Made by a program: the position numbers and the translations under genes. The notes beneath the pieces are model-generated. The model saw nothing but the letters and a program-made list of their open reading frames with translations, was not told where the DNA came from and did no database searches. 64,000 nucleotides of DNA from positions 1 to 64,000 of the forward strand of contig CBDAOY010000006.1 in the NCBI GenBank assembly GCA_965198225.1, in the 5' to 3' direction. Positions 29,488 to 50,960 of this stretch are shown here, in pieces. Source of the stretch: Terriglobia bacterium. GTDB taxonomy: Bacteria > Acidobacteriota > Terriglobia > 20CM-2-55-15. Numbering within the stretch: position 1 is the first letter of the stretch; the number at the start of each line of letters is the position of its first letter.

Positions 29488-29496
29488 ACCCAGGCC

Positions 29497-29566
29497 GTGT
29501 AGGTGCGGTCTATGACCGCACATCCTTCAAACCGCCACAACGTGCGCTCAGAGAGCGCACCTACAC
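29497..29566. repeat. REPIN
   Basis: Same 25-20-25 nt inverted doublet. Confidence 0.9.
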
Positions 29567-29573
29567 CCGACCT

Positions 29574-29819
29574 CTACTTTTCGGTGGGATGTAGGTTCTC
29601 GGCGCTTCGCACGTCGATTGGTGCTTCCTCGAAGTCTTCACCAGCCGCGTCGAGTGCTTCCCGGCGGTTCAGCTCCAGAGCTTCGCGTAGCGTCACCTTC
29701 AGAGACTCGATCAATTCTGGCCTCGTCCGCTCTTGACAGTTGATTCCGGGCAGTTCCTCGATCCACCCGATCCACCACGGATCAGAGTGCTTGATGACGG
29801 CCGTGTACGTTTCCTGCAT
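29574..29819 (-). CDS. hicB: HicB-family antitoxin (orphan)
   Basis: YTAVIK...WWIGWIEELPGINCQERTRPELIESLKVTLREALELNR. Confidence 0.85.
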   Translation of the reverse strand: MQETYTAVIKHSDPWWIGWIEELPGINCQERTRPELIESLKVTLREALELNRREALDAAGEDFEEAPIDVRSAENLHPTEK

Positions 29820-29886
29820 GACAACAGTCTAGCCGCGTCCGACGGCTAAAGGCTAAAAGGGTTTGGAGTGCTTATGTCCCCCAGAC

Positions 29887-29956
29887 GTGTAGGTGCGGTC
29901 TATGACCGCACACTCTTCGATTCGCGACGACGTGCGCTCATAGAGCGCACCTACAC
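29887..29956. repeat. REPIN at the 3' end of the kinase array
   Basis: Same 25-20-25 nt inverted doublet. Confidence 0.9.
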
Positions 29957-30006
29957 TCGTTGAGAGTTCTCGCGGTGGCAACGGAAAGATCGGCGCCGGA
30001 CAGTCA

Positions 30007-32610
30007 TTACGGCACCGGCACCTTCTCCTTCAACTCCTCAAACCAATTCAGGACGACGTTGATCCGGTTGCTCTCTTCAGTCACCCCGCTCGTTCCTGCC
30101 CGGCCGACGAGAAAACGGTTTCCGTCCGGGTGAACGCCTAACAAGGTAAGAAGAATATACGGACTGGCGAAGAGTTCACGTGGAGAGCCGCGCGTGAAGG
30201 CGGGCTCGAATCCAACGGGTACGGCCATCACTCTCCTGCGGTCGAGATCGCGGTAATAGAGTTCGCGCCCGTCGGCAGACCAGAGCGGAGGAGAGCCGCG
30301 TCCATCGGCGATCCGATGAGGGGTTCCGGGCCCAGGGTAGGGCGCGACCCATATCTCGCTTCCTTGCCGTGTGTAAGCGATCCACTTTCCGTCGGGCGAG
30401 AACGAGGGGGCCGTTTCAGCGTCGGCCGTGGCCAGAAACGGTTCGGCCGAAGCTTGCTCGATGGAATACACCCAAAGGTCGCGCCGGGTTGTTTCCGAGT
30501 CGGGCGGGGCATCAAACGCCAGCAAACGGCCGTCCGGGGACCACGAAAGGCTCACCGGCGACGTATGATGCGACCAGAGGAGTTCAGACGGTCCGCTGCC
30601 ATCTGCAGCCTGCCAGTAGATGTCGCGGCCGGCCACAAAAGTCACTCGCCCGCCGTCCGGTGTCCACGCCGGTGGAACCGTGGCGCGACCGTCGTCTGTC
30701 AATCGGCTCGGCGTGCCGCTCTCCACGTCGACGATCCAAATATTGCCTCCGCCGTCTTCGGAAACCAAGACCGCCACACGATCGCCGGTTGACGACACTC
30801 TGGCGCCCCGGTATTCAAGGTTCGACTGGCTGAGCGGAGTGGCGCGCCCGCTCCCATCCATCCATTCGAGCGTCGAGCGAAAATCAGCCGCGCCACCGGG
30901 CACATAGGCGAACGTACCGTTTGCCCCGAAGGCGTAATTCGCGCTGGTCGAATGCAGGACATCCTGTTGGATCACGACCGGGTTCCCGGTCAAAGCGAGG
31001 TTGTCGCTATCGAACGGGACCGCGTGTAGCGTATCTACCATTCCATATACGATATGGCCGGTCGGTACGTACCGCGCATCGATTCCTCTTAGATTCAGAA
31101 CGGTGCGTTCGCCCGATTCCAAAGACTGCAAGACGGTCTGAGGGCTTTCAGCAGATCCTGTTCCGAACAATGCCGCGTTCCCACCAGGCAGGATCTGTGG
31201 GACTGCCATGAACTCTCCCTTGGCCGCGATGAGCAGTTGAGGCGTTCCACCTTCCGACGGCACGCGGAAGATCCCTTCGTTGTTGGCGAAGACAATCGTA
31301 TCTTCGTCGGGCCAGGAGCACATGAAGTAAGGGTCGACATCACACACCTTCATCGGCGCGCCGCCCGCCACAGCAACTTTCTTCAGCTGACGATCGTCAA
31401 GAGACCAATACGAGACCCATTGTCCGTCGGGCGAGAAAAGGGGATCCGCGGGATTGTCGTCCGTTGGAAGCGGCCGCACCTCATCCGCAGTCAAATCCCA
31501 TAGGTGGAGTTGGGAGTCAGCGACGTAAGCAATCCGGCCCCCGTCTGGAGAGACCGCGATGACTGGGTATCCGAACTCGGCGTCGAACTCCTGGCTGTCT
31601 GGAAGCTGGAAGTGAAAGCGCGTGATCGGCCGGGGTTCCGGCCCAGGCACGGGCCTCAGGTACCAACCCAGTGGAGCTGCCACCAGGATTCCCAGAGCCA
31701 GCATCGCCACAGCATAAGGAGTTATCGTTCTGGCGCGCGGTTCGCCTTCAACACCCGCCGTGGCGACGAGCGCGGCTTCGATCTCGAGGCGTACGTCCGC
31801 GATCGCGTGCCACCGACGCTTCGGATTCTTCTCCAGACAGCGTTCGAGAAGTCGTCGACCTGCTGGGTTGAGGTCAGTGGGCAAGTTGCCGAAGTCCGGT
31901 TCACGGTCAAGGATTGCCGCAATCGTGTCCGACAAAGTCTGCTGTTTGAAGAGTGTCTTTCCCGTCAGCATTTCGTAGAGCACGCAACCAAACGCCCAGA
32001 CGTCAGACCGATGATCGGCCGGTTGACGCCGCGCCTGCTCCGGACTCATGTAGGCGGGCGTGCCCAGCAGTACGCCCTTACCGCCTGCGGCATCCTCGGC
32101 CAGCGTTTCGAGGACGGTCTCATCGCCCACTGCAGTGCCGGCATAGGCCTTCGCCAACCCGAAATCCAGGACCTTCACTTTGCCTTCAGACGTGACCTTG
32201 ATGTTGGCGGGCTTCAGATCCCGATGGATGACGCCCTTCTCGTGCGCGGCTTCGAGGGCTTCGGCGATCTGGAGTGCGAGTTCGAGGGATTCCTGGACGG
32301 GAAGCGGCCCCCGATCCAGTTGTTCCGACAGAGTCTGCCCTTCGACCAACTCCAAAACGAGGAACCGCGTTCCCTCGGACTCTTCCAGCCCGTAGATCGC
32401 CGCGATATTCGGATGATTCAGCGAAGCAAGCAGCTTGGCCTCGCGCTCAAAGCGCGCGATCCGTTCGGTATCTTGTGCAAACTCCTCCGGAAGAACCTTG
32501 ATCGCGACACTGCGGCCGAGCTTCTTATCGGTTGCCTGATACACCTCGCCCATGCCGCCTTTACCTATGGCAGCGGTGATCTCATAGTGAGCCAGTGTCC
32601 TGCCAATCAT
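30007..32610 (-). CDS. Array kinase K1: Ser/Thr kinase (clade A), TM, PD40 propeller ending VPVP
   Basis: Intact 867-aa ORF with all Hanks motifs; ends VVLNWFEELKEKVPVP. Confidence 0.95.
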   Translation of the reverse strand: MIGRTLAHYEITAAIGKGGMGEVYQATDKKLGRSVAIKVLPEEFAQDTERIARFEREAKLLASLNHPNIAAIYGLEESEGTRFLVLELVEGQTLSEQLDRGPLPVQESLELALQIAEALEAAHEKGVIHRDLKPANIKVTSEGKVKVLDFGLAKAYAGTAVGDETVLETLAEDAAGGKGVLLGTPAYMSPEQARRQPADHRSDVWAFGCVLYEMLTGKTLFKQQTLSDTIAAILDREPDFGNLPTDLNPAGRRLLERCLEKNPKRRWHAIADVRLEIEAALVATAGVEGEPRARTITPYAVAMLALGILVAAPLGWYLRPVPGPEPRPITRFHFQLPDSQEFDAEFGYPVIAVSPDGGRIAYVADSQLHLWDLTADEVRPLPTDDNPADPLFSPDGQWVSYWSLDDRQLKKVAVAGGAPMKVCDVDPYFMCSWPDEDTIVFANNEGIFRVPSEGGTPQLLIAAKGEFMAVPQILPGGNAALFGTGSAESPQTVLQSLESGERTVLNLRGIDARYVPTGHIVYGMVDTLHAVPFDSDNLALTGNPVVIQQDVLHSTSANYAFGANGTFAYVPGGAADFRSTLEWMDGSGRATPLSQSNLEYRGARVSSTGDRVAVLVSEDGGGNIWIVDVESGTPSRLTDDGRATVPPAWTPDGGRVTFVAGRDIYWQAADGSGPSELLWSHHTSPVSLSWSPDGRLLAFDAPPDSETTRRDLWVYSIEQASAEPFLATADAETAPSFSPDGKWIAYTRQGSEIWVAPYPGPGTPHRIADGRGSPPLWSADGRELYYRDLDRRRVMAVPVGFEPAFTRGSPRELFASPYILLTLLGVHPDGNRFLVGRAGTSGVTEESNRINVVLNWFEELKEKVPVP

Positions 32611-32621
32611 GCCTTTGTCCC

Positions 32622-32691
32622 GTGTAGGTGCGGTCTATGACCGCACATTCTTCAAACCACGACAACGTGCGCTCATAGAGCGCACCTACAC
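32622..32691. repeat. REPIN, 11 nt upstream of the K1 ATG
   Basis: Same doublet. Confidence 0.9.
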
Positions 32692-32719
32692 TTGCTGGGA
32701 TGCAAAAAACGGTGTTGCC

Positions 32720-35347
32720 TCATTTGCGATTGAGTTCCCCCGTCCAATTGACGACCACACTCACCGGTTTAGGATTGGGGTGCGGCCGCCTCAGAAGGAA
32801 TCTATCACCCTCCAGAGTCACGGAATAATGGTTGCGGCTGTCAACCAACCCTGTGATCTGCGGCTCAAATACCCGTTCGGGCGGACCGACGCGAAGATCA
32901 CCGGAATCGAGCTCTACACGAACCGCCATGACACGTCGATCTTCTCCGCCAAAAAACAACTCCTCACCGTCGTTCCTCCAACGCGGATGGAATCCGCCCT
33001 CGCTGGATACGCGTCTGGTGTTCTCTCCCGCCGGGAAACTCGTTACGTATATTTCCATAGTGCCGGTTTCTGCGGATGCGTAAGCGACCCAGTTTCCATC
33101 CGGCGAGAAGACGGCGCCATACTCGTAGGAGTCCGAGTCCAGGAGTCTCCAGGGTGCTTGATCACCCAAGACAGGCAAGACCCACACGTCACCCGAGTCT
33201 GCGGGTGAGTCTTCAAACAGAATGAACCGGCCGTCACCGGACCAATCTGTCGGTCTGATCCACTCCGTGTCGACGGCTCCCTCAAACACCAATTCTTCGT
33301 TTCCGCTGACCACATCCTTCACCCACAGGTCAAAGCGATCATTCCGGTCGGTAGCAAAAACGATTCGATCTCCCTGTGGCGACCAAACGGGATCCATGTC
33401 ATACGATGGATTCGATGTGAAACGCGTTGTTGTGTTCCTCTCGACATCGATCAGCCAGATGTCGACGTTTCCAGACGCGGGATCCCGACGGTTCACTGCC
33501 ACCCGTCGCCCGTCCGGCGACAGCGCCGGATTCACAAACTCACCAGATTCAGGTTGGTGAGCCGTCCCCAATTCCTTTCCCTGTCGATCGAACCAGACGA
33601 GCTGGCCATCCACCCCGGGACCGGGCCTGAAGGCCAACATTCCATTCTCCGAAACCGAGAACGGCACGCTGACTTCTCCCAGCACCGAACCAGACACAAC
33701 CAACCGACCGATGGTTTGCGGTTGGTCATCAAGCGCGAGGGTTGCAGGATCGAAACGCTGAGCCATCAAGGTGCCACCTCGTAAGAACAGGATGTGACCA
33801 TCGGCGTACTGGGCTCCAGAGTTCGCATCGAGCAGAAAGCTCGCCCGCCCGGATTCCAACGAAGCAACGTGAACAGCACCAGGGTCCCTATCCGGGTAAA
33901 CGCTATACAGAAAGTGATTCCCGTCGGGCAGAAAGAACGGGAACCCTCGGGGCGTCTCCGGGCTGAACCCATCCTGTACGGCCACCGGTGTTAGCGGGCC
34001 GCCGTCCTCGGGTAAGCGGTTAAGTCCCGCCAGGAGAATCGTGCCGTCGTTGTTCCAGGTACCATTGAAGGACCGTCCATCGTATAGCGTCTGAGGACTT
34101 CCCCCCGAAAGATCAAGCTTCTTCACACGACCCTGATCGGTCGAAAACCCTAACAAACGGTTGTCCGGTGACCAGTACACGCTGGCGGCACCCTCGGTCC
34201 CCGGGAGCGCTTCGGAATGCTCGGATTCGAACGCCCGTAGCCATATCACCCTTTCTCCGTCGGAGTCTGGTCCAATAAAGGCCATCCGCTGGCCGTCTCG
34301 TGCCAAGGCGAATTCCTCGCCGCCAGCTCCCGGCGGTAAAGGGACGACAAAACGCACCGCTTCTGGTTCTCGGTCCGAATCCCCGACCCCGGTGACCAGC
34401 AGAGCCAGGACAGCGATCAGCAACCCTGAAGTTGCCGTAACCCATGCGACGCGTTCCCAGCCCCTCGTGTCAACCTTGACCGGCAACGGGTCTCGCTCAG
34501 CCTCCGCAGCGAGTTCCATGGCGATGCGGACATCACCGATGGCCTGCCACCGACGCTTCGGGATCCTCTCCAGGCAACGTTCGAGAAGTCGTCGAAGGGC
34601 TGGATCGAGGTCGTCCGGCATCGCGCCGAAGTCCGGTTCCCGTTCAAGGATGGCTGCGATGGTGTCGGAGAGCGTGTTGCCTTTGAAGAGCGTCTTTCCG
34701 GTCAACACCTCATAAAGCACGCACCCGAAAGCCCAAACGTCTGACCGATGATCGGCCGGCTGTCTGCGAGCCTGCTCGGGGCTCATGTACGCCGGCGTGC
34801 CGAGAAGGACGCCCCTACCGCTCTCGGAATCCTCCGCCAGCGTTTCAAGGACGGTTTCGTCACCCAGCGCAGTGCCGGCATACGCCTTCGCCAACCCGAA
34901 GTCCAATACCTTTACTTTGCCTTCAGACGTGACCTTGATGTTGGCAGGCTTCAGATCCCGATGGATGACGCCCTTCTCGTACGCGGCTTCGAGGGCTTCC
35001 GCGATTTGGAGGGCGAGTTCGAGGGATTCCTGGACGGGAACCGGACCGCGTTGAAGGCGATCTGCGAGCGTGTCGCCTTCTACCAGCTCCAGAACGAGGA
35101 AGCGCGTACCTTCCGATTCCTCGAGCCCGTAAATTGCCGCGATGTTCGGATGATTCAGCGACGCCAGCAGCTTCGCTTCGCGCTCGAAGCGTGCGACGCG
35201 GTCGCTATCTTGTGCAAACTCTTCAGGCAGGACCTTGATTGCGACATTGCGGCCGAGCTTCCCATCCGTGGCTTGATACACCTCGCCCATACCACCTTTA
35301 CCGATGGCTGCGGTGATTTCGTAGTGGGCCAGTGTCTTGCCAATCAT
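32720..35347 (-). CDS. Array kinase K2: clade A kinase with a K7/K8-type sensor region
   Basis: Intact 875-aa ORF; FLPDGNHFLY, LVWFDRQGKELGTA, ends VVVNWTGELNRK. Confidence 0.95.
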   Translation of the reverse strand: MIGKTLAHYEITAAIGKGGMGEVYQATDGKLGRNVAIKVLPEEFAQDSDRVARFEREAKLLASLNHPNIAAIYGLEESEGTRFLVLELVEGDTLADRLQRGPVPVQESLELALQIAEALEAAYEKGVIHRDLKPANIKVTSEGKVKVLDFGLAKAYAGTALGDETVLETLAEDSESGRGVLLGTPAYMSPEQARRQPADHRSDVWAFGCVLYEVLTGKTLFKGNTLSDTIAAILEREPDFGAMPDDLDPALRRLLERCLERIPKRRWQAIGDVRIAMELAAEAERDPLPVKVDTRGWERVAWVTATSGLLIAVLALLVTGVGDSDREPEAVRFVVPLPPGAGGEEFALARDGQRMAFIGPDSDGERVIWLRAFESEHSEALPGTEGAASVYWSPDNRLLGFSTDQGRVKKLDLSGGSPQTLYDGRSFNGTWNNDGTILLAGLNRLPEDGGPLTPVAVQDGFSPETPRGFPFFLPDGNHFLYSVYPDRDPGAVHVASLESGRASFLLDANSGAQYADGHILFLRGGTLMAQRFDPATLALDDQPQTIGRLVVSGSVLGEVSVPFSVSENGMLAFRPGPGVDGQLVWFDRQGKELGTAHQPESGEFVNPALSPDGRRVAVNRRDPASGNVDIWLIDVERNTTTRFTSNPSYDMDPVWSPQGDRIVFATDRNDRFDLWVKDVVSGNEELVFEGAVDTEWIRPTDWSGDGRFILFEDSPADSGDVWVLPVLGDQAPWRLLDSDSYEYGAVFSPDGNWVAYASAETGTMEIYVTSFPAGENTRRVSSEGGFHPRWRNDGEELFFGGEDRRVMAVRVELDSGDLRVGPPERVFEPQITGLVDSRNHYSVTLEGDRFLLRRPHPNPKPVSVVVNWTGELNRK

Positions 35348-35349
35348 GG

Positions 35350-37025
35350 TTACGGGACCGGAACCCGTTCCTTCACTTCCTCGATCCAGTTCTGTACGAC
35401 GACAACCCGCCGTGGTGCGAGATTGTCGTCCCCGTCGGGACGGATCATGAGAAAGCGGCCATCTGGGCCTACGTCATACGACGGTGGCTGTACACCCCTG
35501 AGAAGGCTTGTACTGAGAAAGCTTGTCTCGAATAGCTGTTCTGGTGGTTGAAAATCCACGCTGTCTTCGGTCTGAACCGCCACCGCCATCATTGCATCGC
35601 CTTCGAGGTAGTAAAGTTCTCGTCCGTCACGGGCCCAAATTGGCTCGATGCCGCCGTTCGGAGAAACCCGGACCGCCGCGGCGGGCCCAGGGTAGCGTCG
35701 GACCCAGATCTCTGATTGACCGGTCTGGTCGGAAACGTAGGCAAGCCATCGCCCGTCTGGTGAGAGCGCGGCTCCCCAAAACCCTTCGTCGGACGGCGTC
35801 GCGACGATCGGTTCGATCTTGTCGGGCTCCGCGATCGGCCAGCGGACGATGTCGTTTCCGGTATCCCCTCCGAGTTGGAGGCCTGGAGTTCGTCGATCGA
35901 TCTCAGGTACAGTCCGTCGCCCCGGACCATTGCGATCTGGCTGCCGTCCGGTGAGATGGCAAGTATGGACGGACGAACGGAGGTTTCGGGGGACTCCCCT
36001 CCGCCCTGGGGCAGATCGTACTCAAAACGCGTGACCGCCCGGGGTTCCGGCCGAAGCGGTCTCAAGTACCAGGTGAGAGGAATTGCGACCAGAGCGATCA
36101 TCAGGATCGCAACCGCGCACCAAAGAATCGGTCGGGCCTGCGGTTTGGAGTCGGTACCCGGCTCACCTGAACCTGGGCTGGCTAGCGCCGCTTCGACTTC
36201 CAGCCGCACGTCGGCGATCGCGTGCCAACGACGCTTTGGATTCTTTTCCAGGCATCGTTCGAGGAGTCGACGAATGGCGGGACTGAGGTTGTTCGGCAGC
36301 CGGCCGAAGTCCGGCTCACGTTCAAGGATCGCGGCAATCGTGTGCGACAGTGTGTTGCCTTTGAAGACGACCTTGCCAGTCAGCATTTCGAACAGGACAC
36401 AACCAAACGACCAGACATCCGACCGATGATCGGCCGGCTGACGACTGGCCTGTTCCGGACTCATGTAGGCGGGCGTTCCCAAGAGGACGCCCTTGCCGCT
36501 CTCGGCACCCTCGGCCAGCGTTTCCAAAATGGTCTCATCGCCGAGAGCAGCGCCGGCATAGGCCTTCGCCAACCCGAAGTCCAATACCTTCACTTTGCCT
36601 TCGGACGTGACCTTGATGTTGGCGGGCTTCAGATCCCGATGGATGACGCCCTTCTCGTGCGCGGCTTCGAGGGCTTCCGCGATTTGTACGGCGACTTCGA
36701 GTGATTCCTTAACGGGGAGGGGGCCGCGAACCAGTCGTTCCGACAGAGTTTGGCCTTCGACCAGCTCTAAGACGAGGAAGCGCGTTCCTTCGGATTCTTC
36801 CAGTCCGTAGATCGCCGCGATGTTCGGATGGTTCAGCGAGGCGAGCAGCTTGGCCTCACGCTCGAAGCGTGCAACGCGGTCGTTATCTTGTGCAAACTCT
36901 TCAGGCAGGACCTTAATCGCGACATTGCGGCCGAGCTTCCTATCGGTGGCTTGATACACCTCCCCCATGCCACCTTTGCCGATGGCTGCGGTGATCTCGT
37001 AGTGAGCCAGTGTCTTACCGATCAT
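35350..37025 (-). pseudogene. Array kinase K3: intact kinase and TM, about 950-bp out-of-frame deletion in the propeller
   Basis: 1676 nt versus about 2630 nt for its siblings; jumps from LYLRSIDELQA (about 35880) to the K4-like DIVRWPIAEPD segment in another frame. Confidence 0.85.
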
Positions 37026-37027
37026 AG

Positions 37028-42278: not shown

Positions 42279-42289
42279 AAGTTCGTTAC

Positions 42290-42360
42290 GTGTAGGTGCG
42301 GTCTATGACCGCACGTCTTTGCAGGCCTGACTTTTGTGCGCTCATAGAGCGCACCTACAC
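42290..42360. repeat. REPIN, 11 nt upstream of the K5 ATG
   Basis: Same doublet, 21-nt spacer. Confidence 0.9.
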
Positions 42361-42420
42361 CTGGGGCGATGCGACATAGCGTCGCTTGTTTTGAATTCAA
42401 TCGGTTGACCTCTCTCCGCA

Positions 42421-45074
42421 TCAGCTGCTACCAGGCCAGCCCTTCCTGACATGGATTACGTCGGAGCCGGGTTGTTCGACACCCTGGACGAAGTAGAAGC
42501 GAGAACCATCAGGGGATACGGCCAGAGGACTCATTCGTGGCACAAGATACGCGGGCGCACGGACGGAGAACAGCCGTTCCGGGCGTGAGAAGTTCAAGGT
42601 TCTCCCTTCGGCCCTGACCCGTACGGACCAGACGAACCGCATAGCGTCTTCGAAGTCCAGATAGGCGATTTCCTTCCCGTCCCCGCGCCACTGGGGATTG
42701 AGGCCGTTCCCAATCGATTGTCTGTTCTCGACCCCGCCTGGAAAAGGCTGGACGTAGATCGCACTCGTTCCGTTCTCATCAATTATCCCGTAAACGATCC
42801 ATTGGCCATCGGGGGAGAATCTCGGCGTATAGACTGTGTCTCCTGTGTCGACAAGAAGCCTATCGGTGCCCTCGCCAGCCCCAACCCGTGCGGAAGAAGC
42901 GGTTAAGCCCGGCCCCGTGTAAAGAATCTCGGTGCCATCCGGCGAAGTGTCCTCCGGGAAGCCGGCTGTCACCAGCCCCATCTGCTGGGGATCGGCCGAA
43001 CCGTCGACGGGGCGTTCGAAGATCCGCCACGGAGGCCCGTCCTCGACCGAGGCCAACCCGAGAAGGCCGGAGCCGTCCGGAACCCAGAACCAAACACCGG
43101 CTCCGAGAGGGTTGCGGCCGGACTGGTTCGGACGCAGGAGCCATTTGCCGTCGGCTAGCAGACGCGTTCCATCCGGCGAGAGAACGATTGAGCCCAGAGC
43201 GCCCTCTGGCCCGGCCGTCTCGATCTCGTTGCCCTGACGGTCAAGACCGTCACCTGAGCCAGGGCGGCCCGTCCTGGCCGCCATGCCAGCGTTCCGGAGT
43301 GCGAAACGGAAAAGTGTGCTGTAAAACTGGTGATACCCGGCATCGAGGCGACATTCTCCTCGACGAGCTCGGCATCGCCTTCCAGACGCCGCTGGTCGAC
43401 GTTCAGAGTCTGGGCATACAGGTTGTCGTTCCGGATGAAGAGGAGCCGCCCGCCGCCGGCCGGCGTGTAACGGGCTGCCGTCGTCGCCGGTAGCAGTCGG
43501 ACAGGATTGGTGGCGTTGCCGTCCTGGAACGTCGCCAGATAGATGTCTCCCCCTTCGTCTTCTTCTCTGTCGGAATCGATGGGCACGAACAGAAACATGA
43601 AGTCTTCACTGTCCGGCAGGAAGTGCGGATAAAAGAAAGCACCTTCTTCCAGACCAGGCACCTCCACCGGTCGGAATTCACCACCGGAGTCTCCCGTCGC
43701 GAACAACTCGAAAGAAGTTTCACCAACATGAGAAAGCAGGATTGTGCCGTCGTGACTCCACGTGCCGCCGCGAGTAGGGCCGATTGACTCCGCGATGGAT
43801 TCGGGCGCGCCATCGGGCACGCGAACCTTGATGAGGCCAGTGGTCGAGGGAAACACCACGTGCCGGGAGTCAGGGGACCAGAATGCCGCGTTACTGATCG
43901 GGATCCCGCCGAGTGGAAGGGGTTCGAAGGAATCGAGGGGGCGCACCCAGATTCCACCACCCGATTGGAACAGCAAAGAAGAGCCGTCCGGGGAGATCTC
44001 AGGAGTTGCGGCCAGGCCGCCGACGGGGCGAAAAGAGCTTCCGTCGGGAGGAAGGACGGTGAGCTCGAAGCCGGAACCCGGCCCGGTCGCCGGCATCCGA
44101 TCAAAGTAGGGTAGGTACACGAATAGGGCAATCAGCGATGCGGCGGCGGCGACCGCCCAGGCCACCCGTTCCCGACCTGGTCTCGAGCTTGTGAACTCGC
44201 GGTCGACTACGGCCGCAGCGTCCGCCGCGCCTTGGACGATCCACCTCAGCTCGCGCATCAAATCGCCGGCGCTCTGCCAGCGGTCGTCCGGGTCCTTTGC
44301 GAGGCACTGACGTACCAATCGATCCAACGCTGCCGGTACCAGCTCGTGAAGCTCGGACATGGGTCGCGGGTCATTCTGCATGATCGCAGCGATCAGGCTC
44401 GCCTGGCTCGCTCCCTCGAAGGCCTTCCTCCCTGTGACTGTCTCGTAGAACACGGTACCGAACGCGAAGATATCCGTCCGGGCATCGGTATCGCGGCTCT
44501 CAAGCTGTTCGGGGGCCATGTACTGAAGCGTGCCGAGGATCTCCCCTTCCACCGTCAACGGCTCCTTCTCTTCAACCGTGGACCGTTCCTCGAGCGAGGC
44601 TCGTTTCGTGTCGAGCTTGGCCAGACCGAAGTCCAGCAGCTTCACGCCCGACTTCGTCACCATGATGTTGCCGGGCTTGAGATCCCGATGGACGACGCCC
44701 TGCCGGTGTGCCTTATCGAGCGCGTCGGCGATCTGGATGGCGTACTCCAGCGCCTGATCGAGGTTCAGCGAGCCTTTCTCCAGCCTCTTGGCTAGCGTTT
44801 CTCCCTCGACGTACTCCATGACGAGGTAGTGGATGCCGTCGGCTTCGCCGATGTCGTGGAGCGTGCAGATGTGGGGGTGGTTCAGGCTGCTGACGGCCCG
44901 GGCTTCACGCTCGAAGCGTTCCCGGCGCCTGGGATCGTCGGCGAGGTGTTCGGGGAGAACCTTGATCGCAACGGTGCGGTCCAGGCGGGTGTCGGTCGCC
45001 TGATACACCTCTCCCATGCCACCTTTGCCGATGGCCCGGGTGATTTCGTAGTGAGCCAGTGTCTTGCCGATCAT
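42421..45074 (-). CDS. Array kinase K6 (clade B); 1-nt frameshift near 43243
   Basis: AVSSLNHPHICTLHDIG, GTLQYMAPE; adding one T restores VTVFDRQGNEIETAG. Confidence 0.9.
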
Positions 45075-45085
45075 AAGTTCGCTAA

Positions 45086-45147
45086 GTGTAGGTGCGGTCT
45101 ATGACCGCACGTCTTTGCTTTTGTGCGCTCATAGAGCGCACCTACAC
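45086..45147. repeat. REPIN (12-nt spacer), 11 nt upstream of the K6 ATG
   Basis: Same doublet with a shortened spacer. Confidence 0.9.
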
Positions 45148-45177
45148 TCGCTGGGATTCGAAACAACGCGCCGTGCT

Positions 45178-47826
45178 TCATTGGTTTTCCTCTAGGAGGG
45201 ATGTCCAATTGAGGAAGACCGAAATCGACGCGGGCACTTCATTGCGAATGGTTGGGACGAGGAAGCGCTCGCCGTCACCCGCTGCCGCGTACCGATTCCT
45301 TATGTCGAATGGACCCAATGGCGAGGGTTCCAGGCTCAGTTCGAACAACGTTTCCGGTAAAGCTGCCTCGAGTGTCGAAGAGGTCGTTTCAACCTGAACC
45401 GCCATCAAATTGGAATCCGGATCAAGGTAAAAAATCTCCGTACCGTCGCGTTTCCACCCTGGCTGTCCGCCGCCATCGGTTGAAATTTTCCACTTTCCAA
45501 GACCAGTCGGAAAACTTTGGACGTAAACCTCATGGCTGCCCGACTCGTTCGAGACGTACGTAATCCATCTTCCGTCCGGCGACAATTGAGCGTGGCGTTC
45601 GTCGAACAATGTCTCCAGCAAGGGCTCCGGTTCTCTGTCTCCGATCAACGGCAACAGCCACACGTCCCAGTTGCCTGCCTGATTCAACTTTTCGTAGATA
45701 ACGACCGGACCGTCCGGGGACCAGTCGGTCGGATAGATTTCATCGCTCGCGCTCAATAGCTCTTCGGCTTGACCGGAACCGCTCGACGATTTCAGGTTCA
45801 AAGACCAGGAACCAGTCTCTGTTGAACTGGAGTAGACGATCGAGCTGCCGTCGGATGCCCAGACGGCACTCTGATCGTGAGAATCCTGATCGAATGTGAA
45901 TCGGGAGGTTGTGCCCCGTGACAACTCCAGTAGCCACAAGTTCATCCCGGTTTCGGCGTGCCGCTCGATGACCACTCTTTCTTCGTCCGGTGAAAACCAC
46001 GGGCCATAGTAACCACTCCTAACAACAGGGCTTGCGGTGCCCAGTTCCTGTCCCTTACGGTCGAACCAAACAAGCTGGGTTGAAAGGTTGAGCTGACCAC
46101 TAGGAATCCCGGCTACAACTCCGTTGACCGATGACGAGACGGCAAGACTGAGGTCGGTGGCTATTGGTACGGGCTCACCTTCGATGCGTAGGTTTGCTGC
46201 ATCGAACGGAATAGCCTCCAGCGTACCTGCGCGTGCGAGCAGAAGGTGTCCCAGTGCGTAGTTGACGATCAGGAAACCGTCCATCAGGTGCGTCGTTTCT
46301 CCCGAATCGAGCGACCCGACGTAGACACCTGCGCCCTCGCTATTTACAGCGATATAGAGAAAATGGCGGCCATCAGGCAGGAAATGCGGCCACAGGTGTC
46401 TGTCTTCCCGCCTCGCCTGGTCCAGCGTTGTCACGGGGATCGCATCGCCGCCATCCTCTGACACTCGATACAGTCCACCTCCCGTCGAGATATTGTCTGT
46501 AAATACTATTTCGCCCTCTGCGTTCCAGGTCCCGCTCAAAAACGCGTTGACGGCGCACAGCGGCTGTGCCTGCCGAAGTTGCCCGCCGGATCTCGCAACT
46601 TTTTGAAGCATTGCCCCATCTGAAAAGCCAATGAACCGGCTGTCAGGCGACCAAAAAGCCATACCTACGGCACCTTCGGTTCCGGGCACGGGTCGCAACT
46701 CACGAGAGTCGAGATCGCGTAGCCAAATCTTGGAGCTCCCCGACTCGTTGGCCACGATAGCGATGTGCCGACCGTCCGGAGAGACCGCGCCTGGAAGGCG
46801 AAACATAAGTCCGTCAGGGGGTGAGATTTCGAAACGAGTCAGTGGCGCGGTCGATTGCGACTGGCGGTAGAGGGCGAATCCGAAAAAGATGGCCAAGATC
46901 GAAGCCAGCACCGTCGTCACGAGCAGGACGCGTTCTAGCAGCTTGTTTCGCCTCGTGACCGATGGGGACAACGTCGAGCCTTCATCGGTAATCCCTTCCA
47001 GCTGCAATACCACATCGTGAATTGCACTCCAGCGCCGGTCCGGATCCTTCGCCAGGCATCTCCTTACCACCCGGTCGAGCAGGCTCGGCACGCCGGTTCG
47101 CACGGACGACATCGGCGCAGGCTCCGACTGAAGAATTGCCGCGATGAGGTTGGCCGAGCGTTCTCCCTGGAACGCCTTCTTTCCGGTCACCATTTCGTAG
47201 ATCATGGCGCCAAACGCGAAGACGTCCGTCCGGGCATCGGTGTCGCGGCCCTCCAATTGTTCGGGGGCCATGTACTGGAGCGTGCCGAGGATCTCTCCTT
47301 CCACCGTCAGCGGTTCCTTCTCTTCGACCGTGGATTGCTGTTCGAGTGGGGCGCGTCGCGCTTCAAGCTTCGCCAGGCCGAAGTCCAGAAGCTTCACGCC
47401 CGACTGGGTCAACATGATGTTGCCGGGTTTCAGGTTCCGATGGACGACACCCTGTCGGTGCGCTTTGTCGAGGGCGTCGGCGATCTGGATGGCGTACTCC
47501 AGCGCCTGGTCGAGCTTCAGGGGTCCCCTCGCCAGCCGGCTGGCCAGCGTGTCCCCCTCGACGTACTCCATGACGATGTAGTGGATGCCGTCGGCTTCGC
47601 CGATGTCGTGGAGCGTGCAGATGTGCGGGTGGTTCAGGCTGCTGACGGCCCGTGCTTCGCGCTCGAATCGTTCCCGGCGCTTGGGATCGTCGGCGAGGTG
47701 TTCGGGGAGAACCTTGATCGCCACGGTGCGGTCCAGACGCGCGTCGGTCGCCTGATACACCTCTCCCATGCCACCTTTGCCGATGGCTCGGGTGATTTCG
47801 TAGTGAGCCAGTGTCTTGCCGATCAT
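45178..47826 (-). CDS. Array kinase K7 (clade B) with HRD->HRN catalytic-loop change; possible pseudokinase
   Basis: Intact 882-aa ORF; VVHRNLKPGN (AAC codon at 47434-47436); ends VFLNWTSLLEENQ. Confidence 0.9.
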   Translation of the reverse strand: MIGKTLAHYEITRAIGKGGMGEVYQATDARLDRTVAIKVLPEHLADDPKRRERFEREARAVSSLNHPHICTLHDIGEADGIHYIVMEYVEGDTLASRLARGPLKLDQALEYAIQIADALDKAHRQGVVHRNLKPGNIMLTQSGVKLLDFGLAKLEARRAPLEQQSTVEEKEPLTVEGEILGTLQYMAPEQLEGRDTDARTDVFAFGAMIYEMVTGKKAFQGERSANLIAAILQSEPAPMSSVRTGVPSLLDRVVRRCLAKDPDRRWSAIHDVVLQLEGITDEGSTLSPSVTRRNKLLERVLLVTTVLASILAIFFGFALYRQSQSTAPLTRFEISPPDGLMFRLPGAVSPDGRHIAIVANESGSSKIWLRDLDSRELRPVPGTEGAVGMAFWSPDSRFIGFSDGAMLQKVARSGGQLRQAQPLCAVNAFLSGTWNAEGEIVFTDNISTGGGLYRVSEDGGDAIPVTTLDQARREDRHLWPHFLPDGRHFLYIAVNSEGAGVYVGSLDSGETTHLMDGFLIVNYALGHLLLARAGTLEAIPFDAANLRIEGEPVPIATDLSLAVSSSVNGVVAGIPSGQLNLSTQLVWFDRKGQELGTASPVVRSGYYGPWFSPDEERVVIERHAETGMNLWLLELSRGTTSRFTFDQDSHDQSAVWASDGSSIVYSSSTETGSWSLNLKSSSGSGQAEELLSASDEIYPTDWSPDGPVVIYEKLNQAGNWDVWLLPLIGDREPEPLLETLFDERHAQLSPDGRWITYVSNESGSHEVYVQSFPTGLGKWKISTDGGGQPGWKRDGTEIFYLDPDSNLMAVQVETTSSTLEAALPETLFELSLEPSPLGPFDIRNRYAAAGDGERFLVPTIRNEVPASISVFLNWTSLLEENQ

Positions 47827-47837
47827 AAGTTCACTAC

Positions 47838-47899
47838 GTGTAGGTGCGGTCTATGACCGCACGTCTTTGTTTTTGTGCGCTCATAGAGCGCACCTACAC
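47838..47899. repeat. REPIN (12-nt spacer), 11 nt upstream of the K7 ATG
   Basis: Same doublet with a shortened spacer. Confidence 0.9.
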
Positions 47900-47941
47900 T
47901 TGCTGGGATGCTAAACAACGGTCCGAGTTGGGTGCCGGAGG

Positions 47942-50363
47942 TCATTGGTTTTCTTCGATGAGGGACGTCCAGTTGAGGAGGACTGAAATCGACGTGGGCG
48001 CCGCATCATCGACGAGCGTATCGACGAGGAAGCGCTGGCCATCACTGGTGGCGAGGTATTGGTTCCTGCCGCCGAGCGGGCCTGCAAGGGCCGTTGGTTG
48101 GAGGTTCGGTTCGAACAGCTTTTGTGGAGAAGCCACCTCCAGCGCCGTTCCACCGGTTGCAAGCTGAACGGCCACCAGGTTAGTGTCCGGAGCGATGTAG
48201 AACACTTCCTTTCCGTCACGTCTCCATTTCGGCTGGCTGCCGCCATCCGTGGAAATCTGCCATTTGCCACCGCCCGTCGGGAAAGTCTGCGCGTAAATCT
48301 CCGCTCGCCCGGATTCGTTCGACGTGTAGAGAATCCACTTCCCATCCGGAGAGAATTGAGCCTGGCCTTCATCGAAAGGCGTTTCCAGCAGAGGTTCCGG
48401 TTCTTGATCCCGCGTCAGGGACAAAAGCCATACATCCCGGTCGCCCGCTCTGTTCAGCTTGTCGTAGAGAACGATAGAGCCGTCCAAAGACCAATCGGTC
48501 GGACTAATTAGCCCGGTGGACTCGACCAGCTGTTCGTCCTGACCCGTGCCGCTCGAGGGTCTCCGATTCAAAGACCAGACGCCGGCCTTCTCGCTTGTGT
48601 AGACGATGGAGCTCCCGTCCGGCGCCCAGACAGGGTATTGATCATGCGAATCCTGGTCGAATGTGAATCGCGAAGTCGTGCCCCGTGACAATTCGAGCAG
48701 CCACAAGTTCAGTCCAGTTTCGGCATGCCGTTCAAAGACGACTGTCCGTTCGTCGGGTGAAAACCACGGGAAGTAGTGCCCGGCGTTGTCGGCTGCGGTT
48801 GCGGTGCCCAACTCCTGTCCTTCGCGGTCGAACCAAACGAGCTGCGAGAGGGTAACCGATCCCGCGGGAGTGCCGGCTATGACGCCGTTGATCGAGGCCG
48901 ACAGAATACCGCCCAGACCTGTAGCGACCGGTATCGGGTCACCGGTCCGGCGAAGTCTGGTCGAGCGCGGTGAGGTGTGTTGCCTCGCCGCCCTCCTCGG
49001 AAACCCTGTACAGGACATCTCCGCTCGGTCCAGCAGGTGCAAAGACGATATCGCCTTGAGTATTCCAGGTTGCTCCCACCAATCCGATGGCCGCGCACAA
49101 CAGCTTGGGCGAACCGCCGGCCAGGCTGATTGTTTGAAGCGTACTCCCATCCGAAAAACCGATGAACTGACTGTCGGGTGACCAGAAGGCCCCAAATGGG
49201 TACGCCCCTTCGGTTCCGGGCACAGGTCGCATTTCCGCGGAGTCGAGATCCCGCAGCCAGATTTGCACCTCGCCGGAAGAACGATCCCGTGCCGCTGTGG
49301 CGATCTTCCGTCCATCCGGGGACACAGCAGGTGGGCCGAGAAGGATGAGGTCTTCTGGAGGTGTGACTTCAAGGCGTCGAAAAGGTGGTTCCGTTGTTAC
49401 GGTCTGCCGGTACAGTGTCGAGGAGATGAAGGCGACTGAGAGAACCAGGGTGACAGCTACTAAGACCCTTTCCCGGGTCTTGGAGTCCCTCGACGTAGGG
49501 GGCGACACTCCCCCATCTTCTTCACGTATCCCGTCGAGCTGCAGAACGACGTCGTGCAAGGCACTCCATCGATCGTCCGGGTCTTTGGCCAGGCATCTAG
49601 TGACCACTCGGTCCAGCAGGCGCGGCACGCCAGTTCGCACGGACGACATCGGTGTATGTTCCGACTGAAGAATTGCCGCGATGAGGTTTGCCGAGCGTTC
49701 TCCTTCGAACGCCTTCTTGCCAGTGACCATCTCGTAGAGAACGGCGCCAAAAGCGAATATGTCCGTCCGGGCGTCGGTATCGCGACCCTCCAACTGCTCC
49801 GGGGCCATGTACTGGAGCGTACCTAGGATCTCTCCTTCCACCGTCAGCGGTTCCTTTTCTTCGACGGTGGATTGCTGTTCCAGCGGAGCCGACTTCGCTT
49901 CGAGCTTCGCCAGGCCGAAGTCCAGCAGCTTCACGCCCGACTTGGTCAGCATGATGTTGCCGGGCTTCAGGTCCCGATGGACGACACCCTGCCGGTGCGC
50001 CTTGTCGAGTGCGTCGGCGATCTGGATGGCGTATTCCAGCGCCTGGTCGAGCTTCAGCGGTCCCTTCTCCAGTCGCCTGGCTAACGTCTCCCCGTCGACG
50101 TACTCCATGACGATGTAGTGGATGCCGTCGGCTTCGCCGATGTCGTGGAGCGTGCAGATGTGCGGGTGGTTCAGGCTGCTGACGGCCCGTGCTTCGCGCT
50201 CGAATCGTTCCCGGCGCCTGGGATCGCCGGCGAGGTGTTCGGGGAGGACCTTGATCGCCACGGTGCGGTCCAGACGCGCGTCGGTCGCCTGATACACCTC
50301 TCCCATGCCACCTTTGCCGATGGCCCGGGTGATTTCGTAATGAGCCAGTGTCTTGCCGATCAT
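47942..50363 (-). pseudogene. Array kinase K8 (clade B): intact kinase, about 225-bp out-of-frame deletion in the propeller
   Basis: Relative to K7, the segment between (T/A)LDQ and LRRTGDPIPVAT is missing at about 48956; ends VLLNWTSLIEENQ. Confidence 0.85.
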
Positions 50364-50374
50364 AAGTTCGTTAC

Positions 50375-50445
50375 GTGTAGGTGCGGTCTATGACCGCACG
50401 TCTTTGCTGTCCTGACTTTTGTGCGCTCATGGAGCGCACCTACAC
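50375..50445. repeat. REPIN, 11 nt upstream of the K8 ATG
   Basis: Same doublet; spacer nearly identical to that of 42290-42360. Confidence 0.9.
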
Positions 50446-50591
50446 GTGTCCTTTGGCTCGAACGAGGCTAAAAGTTAGGCCAATACTATGAAAGAAAGAT
50501 TTGTCGGTCAAACTTGGAAAACGTTTATTGGCCGAATTGAATCAGCCTTCTAACCCTAGATCGCGTGTGGATCTCTTGACGGACCTCCAGA

Positions 50592-50960
50592 CTACCGGAC
50601 CGACACAAGACTGTGATCGACCAGGATATCGGTTTCATCGAACACCAGGACCAGGCTGTATCTTTGTTCGCCACCCCAAGGTCGATCCCACCTGGCCGGC
50701 CTCCCCTGGAGTGATCTTCGGTGGGCGCCTACGGACTTGAAGGACTCATCCAGTCGATACGCGACAACGCGCCCGTTCTCGAACTCGGCGAACATCTCGC
50801 CGAGTTGCGCGATCACCGCCTCCCGACTGCTGTGACCATCTTCGAGGAACGAGATGGCGCTGGAGCGAACCTCCGTCGGATCTACAAGCCGCAGTTTCCG
50901 GGCGCAGCCGGTGATGTCGAGGAGTAACACGGCGCAGAGAAACAGCCGGATAGTTCGCAT
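50592..50960 (-). CDS. Lipoprotein with SmpA/BamE-like motif
   Basis: Lipobox ITGC; FLEDGHSSREAVIAQLGE; LVLVFDETDILV. Confidence 0.7.
   Translation of the reverse strand: MRTIRLFLCAVLLLDITGCARKLRLVDPTEVRSSAISFLEDGHSSREAVIAQLGEMFAEFENGRVVAYRLDESFKSVGAHRRSLQGRPARWDRPWGGEQRYSLVLVFDETDILVDHSLVSVR

Follow-up and report, generated by a model that had tools for sequence, protein, structure and literature searches.

The locus described here raises the question of how a row of neighbouring receptor genes comes to combine similar signalling halves with dissimilar sensor halves, and whether such a row is kept by selection as a diversifying repertoire. Acidobacteriota are among the commonest soil bacteria, and to our knowledge little is known about how they sense their surroundings. 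Within the window, the analysed 64,000-nucleotide stretch of a Terriglobia contig from a soil-type Acidobacteriota genome, positions 30007-50363 hold eight co-oriented genes on the minus strand, whose products each join a Hanks-type kinase through a single membrane helix to a PD40 ectodomain. As the first-pass annotation of this DNA had claimed, all eight proteins open in the same way, MIG(K/R)TLAHYEIT(A/R)AIGKGGMGEVYQATD. The copies, K1 to K8, are the following.

30007..32610, minus strand: K1, intact, 867 aa; clade-A kinase, membrane helix at about residues 300-318, type I ectodomain (with K5).
32720..35347, minus strand: K2, intact, 875 aa; chimera, with an identity break near nt 750-825.
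35350..37025, minus strand: K3, broken; ORF 35589-37025 (478 aa) holds the kinase, the membrane helix and a stub.
37028..39660, minus strand: K4, broken close to its 3' end; ORF 37243-39660 (805 aa).
39657..42278, minus strand: K5, intact, 873 aa; 4-nt overlap with the K4 start.
42421..45074, minus strand: K6, broken; ORFs 43155-45074 (639 aa) and 42421-43284 (287 aa), frameshift near 43250-43370.
45178..47826, minus strand: K7, intact, 882 aa; catalytic loop HRNLKPGN.
47942..50363, minus strand: K8, broken; ORFs 48939-50363 (474 aa) and 47942-49372 (476 aa).

The Pkinase profile (PF00069) scored 173.8-191.8 bits in all eight N-terminal ORFs, against a cut-off of 31.7, and a profile search matched PD40 in the C-terminal parts of the array proteins. 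The GKGGMGEV, VAIK and DFG motifs occur in every copy and HRDLKPxN in seven of the eight; we take these to be the glycine loop, the VAIK lysine, DFG and the HRD catalytic loop, respectively. The sole exception is K7, in which Asn131 (codon AAC, 47434-47436) replaces the catalytic Asp to give HRN for HRD. This copy had been put forward as a kinase-dead candidate, and it is probably a pseudokinase, while K1, K2 and K5 look, from their sequences, like working receptor kinases. A single hydrophobic 19-mer lies at residues ~298-322 in all eight copies, and the predicted topology places the kinase in the cytoplasm and the propeller ectodomain in the periplasm.

The ectodomain of K1, the only copy modelled, is all-beta (pLDDT 92.5, pTM 0.86) and comes out in the model as a tandem double beta-propeller, with two-propeller proteins as its best fold matches. 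Among solved structures, the TolB propeller is the closest in sequence (E 1.6e-28), the PDB profile match covering only TolB residues ~206-396. The TolB equivalog TIGR02800 reached 87.2 and 81.2 bits against a cut-off of 343.15, with only the propeller part matching, and neither K1 nor K7 had an NCBIfam match above any curated cut-off. Matches to the PADLOC models PD-T4-6 / MAD6, down to E 1e-94, were confined to the kinase domain (residues ~1-290) and express a generic Hanks-kinase likeness; PADLOC matched none of the array neighbours.

Four of the eight copies (K1, K2, K5 and K7) are intact. K3 and K8 had been called deletion alleles, and both deletions are present and shift the reading frame: K3 has lost ~345 aa, with a frame change near 35830-35895 and its old C-terminal frame at 35829-35353, and K8 has lost ~72 aa, with a frame change near 48957-48964. 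The total of broken copies is nevertheless four, as K4 and K6 are frameshifted as well, K4 by 1 nt near 37366-37390, its old frame reaching 37031. These breaks also change the picture of translational coupling along K5-K4-K3-K2. The overlap between K5 and K4 stands, but the reported 2-nt gaps between K4 and K3 and between K3 and K2 need the frameshifted tails (37028-37366 and 35350-35829, respectively), whereas the actual ORFs of K4 and K3 stop 217 and 241 nt short of the next start.

Both the breaks and the gene order could in principle be products of the assembly: dispersed paralogues might have been merged or strung together by way of their near-identical 5' parts, and the frameshifts might be consensus errors. 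Short-read contigs do end in the kinase 5' parts, which are repeated, and none of them runs the whole length of the array. However, contigs from four runs of four studies show no inserted or deleted letters relative to the array, and pieces of them cover all four breaks: the K3 junction is covered free of indels by contigs of runs X1, X3 and X4, the K4 frameshift site by those of X1, X3 and X6, the K6 frameshift by those of X1 and X3, and the K8 break by an X1 contig (47882-49431) that spans the site. The breaks in K3, K4, K6 and K8 are real. Elsewhere in the assembly, ORFs reach 6368 aa, 91 of them have 1000 aa or more, and rpoC is intact; a complete one-contig genome of the same genus (G002) has the same flanks around a co-linear array. 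An artefact is therefore scarcely credible. Since the short-read contigs bridge only the K5/K4 (X3, X4) and K4/K3 (X6) junctions, the full eight-copy order depends on the assembly together with the synteny in G002.

Run X6 contains K1, K3 and K4, but its contigs leave the ectodomains of K2, K5, K6, K7 and K8 almost uncovered; this may hint at strain-level variation in content, the uncovered parts in themselves being no evidence. Contig joints were considered as a sign of rearrangement and rejected, their sides being 20-29 letters long and lying inside repeated parts.

The two halves of these genes have separate histories. The kinase tree recovers the two clades noticed earlier, A (K1-K5) and B (K6-K8), although 'near-identical' overstated their similarity: the clade-A kinases have 87.5-90.4% amino-acid identity to one another and the clade-B kinases 80.6-90.3%. 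Over whole proteins, clade A falls to 47-58%, and nucleotide identity drops from 80-97% to ~40-60% beyond ~nt 750, in line with the strong ectodomain divergence reported at first. Nor is synonymous divergence uniform along the genes, rising in a 5'-to-3' gradient from a kinase dS of 0.27-0.72 to saturation in the ectodomain. The size of this contrast is approximate, because dS was computed by the Nei-Gojobori method, which is unreliable at saturation and on ectodomain alignments of 30-45% identity; the pS values, 0.23-0.46 for the kinase and 0.65-0.79 for the ectodomain, are its safer form.

The locus alignment comprised 40 of 41 locus rows and four rows from the window, one row (L025) being left out for its stop codons. 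Trees of the two halves are incongruent. Forcing the clade-A ectodomains together costs 308 lnL (AU test, p-AU 6e-54), which makes them polyphyletic, and a tree constrained to join the K2 kinase to its ectodomain partners is worse by 329 lnL (p 2.6e-75). K2 is thus the chimera that it had been suspected to be, a clade-A kinase fused to an ectodomain lineage whose other members bear clade-B-type kinases. K5 is mosaic in another way, as its initial ~100 nt and its upstream REPIN are clade-B-like.

The simplest account of such genes would involve no recombination: they would be old whole-gene duplicates whose kinase half has evolved more slowly under purifying selection. Kinase dN is indeed very low (0.02-0.06), and kinase domains are conserved everywhere. 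This account, however, does not meet the several-fold lower synonymous divergence of the kinase half, the conflict between the trees, the non-coding upstream sequence that K5-K8 have in common, including a private REPIN variant, or a sharp break in identity at ~nt 640. We read this as purifying selection alone being insufficient, and prefer gene conversion combined with duplication and decay; a history free of recombination is hardly plausible.

The break is seen in the comparison of K6, K7 and the K6 orthologue in G002 (copy f, G2_f), where K6-K7 identity falls from 81 to 55% and K6-G2_f identity rises from 81 to 91%. Over the first 640 nt, a copy is equally close to its same-genome paralogue and to its cross-species orthologue. 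In this triplet, 38 sites join K6 to the paralogue and 32 join it to the orthologue up to nt 640, versus 109 and 758, respectively, past it (p 4e-15, for a boundary picked after the identity break had been seen), and three clade-A triplets gave p 2e-5 to 6e-4 in the same site test. The clade-A kinases pair weakly by position across the species (K3 with G2_c at 96, K4 with G2_d at 87), and the homogenisation may therefore be mostly older than the species split, rather than ongoing.

Two other forms of exchange were weighed. A young kinase array that had taken in ectodomain cassettes from elsewhere would show a similar pattern, and our sole ground for rating this lower is that the nearest ectodomain relatives are 49-63% identical. 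A cassette system in which broken or silent donors convert an expressed copy, so that receptors switch within a population as in pilin or VlsE variation, would account for the pseudogenes kept beside intact copies, the evident conversion tracts and the conserved junction sequences. In the array, though, the kinase halves are converted and not the variable sensor halves, and even the youngest tracts have a dS of ~0.1-0.3, which speaks for evolutionary and not cellular time. No recombinase or invertase was found at the locus, and the contig joints show no switching because their sides, under 30 letters, are typical of repeats. We regard switching as very improbable.

The array had also been described as punctuated by REPINs, and REP doublets do lie in and around it.

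29497..29566, no strand: REP doublet (REPIN-like), 320 nt past the array end.
29887..29956, no strand: REP doublet, 51 nt 3' of the K1 stop.
32622..32691, no strand: REP doublet between K2 and K1, a loop variant unlike those upstream of K5-K8.
42290..42360, no strand: REP doublet, 12 nt upstream of the K5 ATG, long-loop variant.
45085..45148, no strand: REP doublet, 12 nt upstream of the K6 ATG, short-loop variant.
47838..47899, no strand: REP doublet, 12 nt upstream of the K7 ATG, short-loop variant.
50373..50447, no strand: REP doublet, 12 nt upstream of the K8 ATG, long-loop variant.

The repeat family has 900 arms (at up to 5 substitutions) and 318 doublets in this genome (G000). A loop ending CAAAGAC together with the spacer GAACTTATG occurs in only four of the 318, those upstream of K5-K8; judged by these shared letters, the four are copies of one another that travelled with the converted 5' module. 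The punctuation is real at this locus but does not characterise the system as such. With up to 3 mismatches allowed, 825 REP arms were counted in this genome versus 2 in G002 (reversed-pattern control, 0), and no REP arm lies within 60 kb of the syntenic array in G002. Kinases are not enriched for flanking REPs either (9 of 76, versus 344 of 3602 genome-wide, p 0.44). The REPINs are passengers of a lineage-specific, genome-wide repeat. A cognate RAYT (Y1 transposase, PF01797) gave no match in this genome, which is 97% complete, and a divergent or unassembled gene is possible. A degenerate remnant lies at the G002 site that corresponds to the doublet at 42290-42360. A promoter scan of 29800-49799 returned one promoter-like site versus 4.3 expected, and the terminator-like sites in the spacers, on the plus strand, are mostly the REP hairpins themselves.

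The detailed comparison between genomes is limited to G002, because no clear syntenic locus with both flanks was found in three others (G003, G001 and G012). The G002 array varies from the present one: it has six copies and not eight, three of the six being split or broken, and its ectodomain types differ, with three K4-type copies and neither the K2 nor the K7/K8 types. The birth-and-death evolution of a receptor cluster with a shared signalling module, as proposed in the first-pass annotation, is a fair description, because mosaic histories, changes in copy number and content and the presence of half the copies as pseudogenes all occur together.

That annotation went further and saw an adaptively maintained, diversifying repertoire, in which a constant module is kept by selection, the propellers diversify towards ligands or threats and repeat-delimited units aid shuffling, as in plant receptor-kinase clusters. 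Much of the evidence is compatible with it: the genes are mosaic, with polyphyletic ectodomain lineages that diverge greatly; two species of the genus differ in the number and content of their copies; arrays recur across the phylum; and kinase dN/dS is low even in broken copies (~0.07-0.15). The signalling module, however, although shared and homogenised, is explained by gene conversion, which is distinct from a selected constant region. Half of the array is broken, one more copy lacks the catalytic Asp, three of the six G002 copies are broken too, and the REPINs supposed to delimit the units are missing there and unlinked to kinases genome-wide. Where dS is unsaturated, ectodomain dN/dS is 0.22 (K7-K8), 0.24 (K6-G2_f) and 0.35 (K4-G2_c), so there is no sign of positive selection in these pairs, each of which includes a broken copy; the pairs of two intact ectodomains are all saturated. 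Saturated dS marks the ectodomain lineages as old and not recently diversified. We consider an adaptive repertoire of this kind unlikely.

The array is not unique but belongs to a family with ~88 kinase loci in this genome, which lie in several clusters, and with matches in 28 of 30 related genomes. Among 45 loci from other Acidobacteriota (at least 20 kb of sequence each), 15 have at least two co-oriented copies, and up to eight. In this genome, five of the seven strong ECF (PF07638) sigma genes lie at most ~750 nt upstream of a family kinase, and the target of those family members is likely the ECF sigma factor encoded just upstream; one ECF-adjacent member is at 12885-16143. The eight-gene array adjoins no ECF sigma gene, the nearest being at 15649-16143. 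Pfam at E <=0.05 gave nothing usable for the flanking ORFs (upstream 50592-52746, downstream 28665-29819). A diversity-generating retroelement, suggested by the reverse transcriptase at 3946-7731, was rejected, as Rfam identifies a group II intron. Searches of one library of open-access papers found neither tandem kinase-PD40 arrays nor gene conversion of the kinase half described for Acidobacteriota.

Taken together, we think it probable, at roughly 70%, that the array is a cluster of a very large Acidobacteriota receptor-kinase family shaped by duplication and loss, conversion of the 5' module and pseudogenisation. Tandem duplication and differential loss would change the copy number. Non-reciprocal gene conversion would repeatedly overwrite the 5' module, that is, the upstream spacer or REPIN and the first ~640-800 nt of the kinase, from a neighbouring donor copy, leaving young, similar kinase halves joined to old, dissimilar sensor halves. 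One REPIN copy would have been trapped in the converted module and spread along with it. Pseudogenisation would be frequent, as in the ectodomain parts of K3, K4, K6 and K8. The intact copies would then use their propellers to sense different ligands in the periplasm, and would phosphorylate targets in the cytoplasm.

Read in this way, the locus shows at base-pair resolution how the largest Acidobacteriota receptor family changes, and more generally how bacterial sensor families grow, mix and decay: the sensor halves are long-lived, the signalling half is repeatedly copied between neighbours, and many copies die. It provides a testable model of which copies signal, and through what. It also cautions annotators that half of such 'kinases' may be pseudogenes, and suggests that REPINs may spread by hitch-hiking on gene conversion, besides transposition. 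A bolder possibility, which we hold to be quite doubtful, is that this array and the many similar ones in Acidobacteriota form a recombination-driven receptor repertoire. Conversion seeded at the closely packed gene junctions would keep the signalling module interchangeable over ancient, dissimilar double-propeller sensors, and the truncated copies, with kinase and membrane helix, and K7 would be retained as working partners or donors rather than as junk. If true, bacteria would have here their equivalent of the receptor-kinase clusters of plants or the paired immune receptors of animals.

Among known systems, one close in architecture is PknD of Mycobacterium tuberculosis, in which an N-terminal Hanks kinase in the cytoplasm is followed by a single membrane helix and by an extracytoplasmic beta-propeller that is presumed to bind a ligand (PMC2877116). 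The array proteins likewise run from kinase through a single membrane helix to a predicted extracytoplasmic beta-propeller. PknD, however, is a single gene with one six-bladed NHL propeller, whereas the present proteins have two tandem PD40/TolB-like propellers and their genes stand in arrays, within a family of ~88 loci. Correspondingly, the PknD equivalog NF009651 scored 141.2 and 172.1 bits against a cut-off of 839, the repeats being PD40 and not NHL.

Large repertoires in which the kinase is intracellular and the repeat domains are periplasmic are also known from Planctomycetota and Myxobacteria. Their membrane Ser/Thr kinases, which bear WD40/TPR arrays in the periplasm, have expanded in a lineage-specific way through species-specific duplication 'and/or recombination', partly in tandem (PMC11032199). 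These differ in phylum and in sensor repeat, the array bearing PD40. The passages that describe them make no mention of gene conversion, pseudogenes or propellers, whereas here the tract, the breakpoint and the decay of copies are seen at a locus and at its orthologous locus. A study of Candidatus Solibacter usitatus Ellin6076 counts the Ser/Thr kinases with the most strongly expanded groups of paralogues, with full-length identities mostly below 50% and no positive selection seen (PMC3174227). Its passages on them treat whole genes and describe no tandem arrays, split kinase and sensor histories or broken copies.

In the ECF43-type pairs PknS-EcfK and PknT-EcfP, a transmembrane Hanks kinase with a periplasmic sensor phosphorylates the ECF sigma factor encoded next to it (PMC13147305). 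The five PF07638 sigma genes directly upstream of family kinases resemble this arrangement, as far as a PF07638 assignment goes, whereas the eight-gene array lacks an adjoining sigma gene.

In eukaryotes, plant receptor-kinase and NLR clusters consist of tandem paralogues that undergo interlocus gene conversion, copy-number change and pseudogenisation. The tandem paralogues TLR1 and TLR6 are reported to be homogenised by conversion in one part and divergent in the other (PMC2077338). The array shares with these clusters one homogenised and one divergent part, together with pseudogenes and copy-number change. It differs from them in being a bacterial locus with translationally coupled genes, and in that the homogenised part is the signalling half.

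The eight co-oriented genes of the array (K1 to K8) lie on the minus strand at 30007-50363 and share the N-terminus MIG(K/R)TLAHYEIT(A/R)AIGKGGMGEVYQATD. Every N-terminal ORF of the array matches the Pfam Pkinase model at 173.8-191.8 bits (cut-off, 31.7 bits), and the C-terminal parts match PD40. The GKGGMGEV, VAIK and DFG motifs are present in all eight copies, as is a single strongly hydrophobic 19-mer at residues ~298-322. HRDLKPxN is found in seven of the eight; the catalytic loop of K7 reads HRNLKPGN (Asn codon AAC at 47434-47436). The structure of the K1 ectodomain (537 aa), predicted from a 44-sequence alignment, is all-beta (mean pLDDT 92.5, pTM 0.86), and its best fold matches are two-beta-propeller proteins, e.g. 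Aip1, tricorn, LRP6 E3E4 and Apaf-1. Among solved structures, the TolB propeller comes closest by sequence profile (E 1.6e-28, profile positions 272-438). The Pkinase and PD40 matches, the hydrophobic helix and the propeller model together point to Hanks kinases of the receptor type whose PD40 part, a tandem double propeller, is predicted to lie outside the membrane.

The reading frame from the start to the conserved C-terminus is open only in K1 (867 aa), K2 (875 aa), K5 (873 aa) and K7 (882 aa). In the other copies, protein-to-DNA alignment against the intact ones and three-frame reading located the following breaks:

K3: frame change near 35830-35895, ~345 residues missing
K4: one-base frame shift near 37366-37390, last ~115 residues lost
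K6: frame shift near 43250-43370
K8: frame change near 48957-48964, ~72 residues missing

Assembly error does not account for these breaks. Across 30450-50449, contigs of four public runs (four studies; one run may be the window's own source) contain no indel letters. The K3 break is covered without gaps by pieces from runs X1, X3 and X4, that of K4 by X1, X3 and X6, that of K6 by X1 and X3, and that of K8 by X1. The rest of the assembly includes 91 ORFs of 1000 aa or more, the longest reaching 6368 aa, together with an unbroken 1445-aa rpoC frame. The 2-nt gaps that the first-pass annotation placed between K4 and K3 and between K3 and K2 exist in the old, pre-break frames but not in the sequence as it stands, where K5 and K4 are the sole overlapping pair (39657-39660).

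K1, K2 and K5 combine the full set of catalytic motifs with complete sensors. K7, judged from its sequence, is probably unable to transfer phosphate; its frame is still open, and its kinase dN/dS against K8 is ~0.11. By their kinase halves, K1-K5 form clade A and K6-K8 clade B. No clade B member of this array is both intact and catalytically complete, and the orthologue in G002, a complete genome of the same genus with a syntenic array (copies G2_a to G2_f), is broken too.

The two halves of these genes have separate histories. Kinase identity is 87.5-90.4% within K1-K5, 80.6-90.3% within K6-K8 and 50-52% across the clades, and outside the array the closest kinase of the genome reaches 67-70% identity. 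Nucleotide identity between copies is 80-97% at the 5' end and ~40-60% past roughly nt 750. Within clades, pS is 0.23-0.46 over codons 30-200 (dS 0.27-0.72) and 0.65-0.79 in the ectodomain, where it is saturated and dS is qualitative only; the first 30 codons of clade B are younger still (dS 0.10-0.15). Since the synonymous differences parallel the drop in identity, protein-level constraint is not its cause.

A tree of 56 kinase domains unites K1-K5 with the five clade A copies of G002 in one clade (support 99) and places K6-K8 and G2_f inside another clade, of 14 rows (support 99). The ectodomain tree splits the array genes into four separate lineages: K1/K5/G2_a/G2_e (support 99); K3/K4/G2_b,c,d (100); K2 with four genes of other clusters (99); and K6/G2_f (100) and K7/K8 (100). 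Interspersed among these lineages are genes of other clusters, with kinases that group elsewhere. Both trees come from 'quick' searches, and their support values are SH-aLRT only. Constraining the ectodomains of the clade A kinases to group lowers the log-likelihood by 308 units (p-AU 6e-54), and constraining the K2 kinase to group with its ectodomain partners lowers it by 329 (p 2.6e-75); K2 is therefore a chimera, as had been claimed at first pass. The check proposed there, a comparison of kinase and propeller trees and of windowed identity, thus gave incongruent trees and divergence that is non-uniform along the gene. The same conflict is seen in other clusters, e.g. C6_297640 and C7_229523.

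The site patterns of the trio K6, K7 (paralogue) and G2_f (orthologue) place the change of history within the gene. In the first 640 nt, 38 sites join K6 with K7 and 32 with G2_f, as compared to 109 and 758 further on (p 4e-15 between regions, with the boundary picked after inspecting 100-nt window identities). At ~nt 640, K6-K7 identity drops from 81% to 55% and K6-G2_f identity rises from 81% to 91% (100-nt windows). The same site test in three clade A triplets gave p 2e-5 to 6e-4. As a yardstick for the species split, the orthologue pairs K6-G2_f and K4-G2_c have a dS of 0.51 and 0.63 in the kinase and 0.82 and 0.85 in the ectodomain, respectively. On this scale, the kinase halves of all clade members coalesce at about the species split, and the sensor halves date back much further.

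This pattern is best read as repeated non-reciprocal recombination, in which a neighbouring copy overwrites the 5' part of a gene. Homology for the exchange is available within the kinase and at the conserved junction, the preceding gene ending ...NWFEELKEKVPVP right before the next ATG. The import of foreign sensor cassettes would give a similar pattern, but the low identity of the nearest sensor relatives (49-63%) makes it the less likely of the two. Under 5' overwriting, the converted module (upstream spacer or REPIN and first part of the kinase gene) also crossed the clade border into K5. The first ~100 nt of K5 and its residue pattern (EITRAIG) resemble clade B; K5-K6 identity falls from 80% in the first window to 61% in the second, and dS between K5 and K7 climbs from 0.39 (codons 1-30) to 1.30 (beyond).

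Seven REP doublets lie within 29497-50447, six of which flank or separate K1, K2, K5, K6, K7 and K8. The delimitation by REPINs (pairs of inverted REP arms) that the first-pass annotation had stressed is, however, not a property of the system: the repeat is genome-wide (900 arms, 318 doublets), shows no enrichment at kinases and is absent from the G002 array. An arm occurs within 150 nt of the ORF 3' end in 9/76 kinases versus 344/3602 other ORFs (p 0.44), and near the 5' end in 7/76 versus 165/3602 (p 0.09). Counted per genome, REP arms number 825 here, 158 in the relative G001, 79 in G012 (another genus) and 2 each in G002 and the same-genus G003 (control, 0). None lies within 60 kb of the syntenic G002 array, where the spacer matching that of K6/K5 holds a decayed REP remnant. 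A loop ending CAAAGAC is confined to four of the 318 doublets, those upstream of K5, K6, K7 and K8, which are also the only ones to precede GAACTTATG (its ATG is the start codon). These four are copies of each other and are best read as having travelled with the converted 5' module. The REP population is expanded and well conserved, and a search for its mobilising enzyme, a PF01797 (RAYT/IS200-type) transposase, found none in this 97% complete genome, so the repeat cannot be assigned firmly to a REPIN-RAYT system. In the 64 kb of the window there are 16 doublets, five of them in direct tandem (56802-57251, 95-nt period) between a 185-aa ORF and TRAP-transporter genes.

G002, the sole relative that gave a syntenic locus, shares both flanks (window 22872-24099 and 54991-61483; G002 21470-22615 and 39353-44595). 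Its six co-oriented copies lie 2 nt apart or overlap by 4 nt; intact frames of 875, 896 and 878 aa are seen in three of them, and the other three are split. G2_b, G2_c and G2_d are all of the K4 type, and K2-type and K7/K8-type sensors are absent from that array. K1 and K5 have no close orthologues in the type-I copies G2_a and G2_e (ectodomain dS ~2). Two segments of the block are absent from G002:

25949-28341: IS21-type element (istA-like and IstB), inside the syntenic block
50450-54990: 4.5-kb segment with ORFs lacking Pfam matches and a SAM-dependent methyltransferase

The genome (6.41 Mb, 9 contigs, with the window opening contig C6) carries 88 kinase-domain loci of the array family (E <=1e-10) in 91 ORF pieces; 76 kinase-bearing ORFs have at least 200 aa, 49 of them at least 700 aa. 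The largest other co-oriented cluster (contig C6, 278000-320300) has ~17 loci, several being split or truncated fragments. A second near-identical N-terminus (MIGKTLGHYEITDKLGQGGMGSVW...) occurs on three contigs in copies whose ectodomains belong to different lineages, and the mosaic pattern therefore appears family-wide. K1 found matches in 28 of 30 related genomes. By record title, 80 loci from other genomes are Acidobacteriota (Terriglobia, Vicinamibacterales, others), with a few from other phyla. Among the 45 of these loci with at least 20 kb of sequence, 30 hold one co-oriented kinase, six two, five three, two five, one seven and one eight. Locus L081 (1-22685), from another Acidobacteriota genome, has eight or more copies in tandem that overlap by 4 nt, one of them split, and L071 has seven copies, several split; the tandem architecture is thus recurrent in the phylum.

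Of the seven strong PF07638 ECF sigma genes in the genome, five have a family kinase within ~750 nt downstream, one has a kinase at 2.1 kb and one has none nearby. Neighbouring Hanks kinases directly phosphorylate such sigma factors, according to the accessible part of PMC13147305, and the arrangement suggests that one output of the family is the phosphorylation of sigma factors. No sigma gene adjoins the eight-gene array. Elsewhere in the window are:

9253-12192 and 12885-14930: further family copies; a third begins at 62334
15649-16143, minus strand: ECF sigma gene (PF07638, TIGR02999) upstream of these two family kinases, one with an open 979-aa frame, the other lacking its first ~37 residues and split (12885-14930 and PD40 piece 12277-12921)
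3946-7926, minus strand: group II intron (Rfam RF02003 at 7783-7926, RF00029 at 5959-6110) with reverse transcriptase
19483-19878, minus strand, and 25282-25686, plus strand: PIN-domain genes, probable toxin-antitoxin toxins
59403-60239: FHA-domain protein
60252-60884: DDE transposase

The intron probably sits inside a TonB-dependent-receptor-like gene, because the reverse transcriptase and a beta-barrel of that type are read in one ORF (3946-7731, 1261 aa). The PIN genes, transposase and FHA-domain protein together mark the region as mobile-element-rich.

In the accessible parts of the cited papers, kinase-PD40 fusions are counted among the common bacterial kinase architectures (PMC2877116), and the kinase paralogue expansion of an acidobacterium shows full-length identity below 50% and no positive selection (PMC3174227). 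Planctomycetota and Myxobacteria have membrane kinases with periplasmic repeat domains, arising by species-specific duplication 'and/or recombination' and partly tandem (PMC11032199); the terms 'gene conversion', 'pseudogene' and 'propeller' do not occur in the accessible text of that paper. Neither tandem kinase-PD40 arrays in Acidobacteriota nor conversion limited to the kinase half turned up in the literature searched. Lineage-specific expansion of receptor kinases is thus already known as a kind; the mosaic mechanism as resolved here, so large a proportion of dead copies and a REPIN that hitch-hikes appear to be undescribed.
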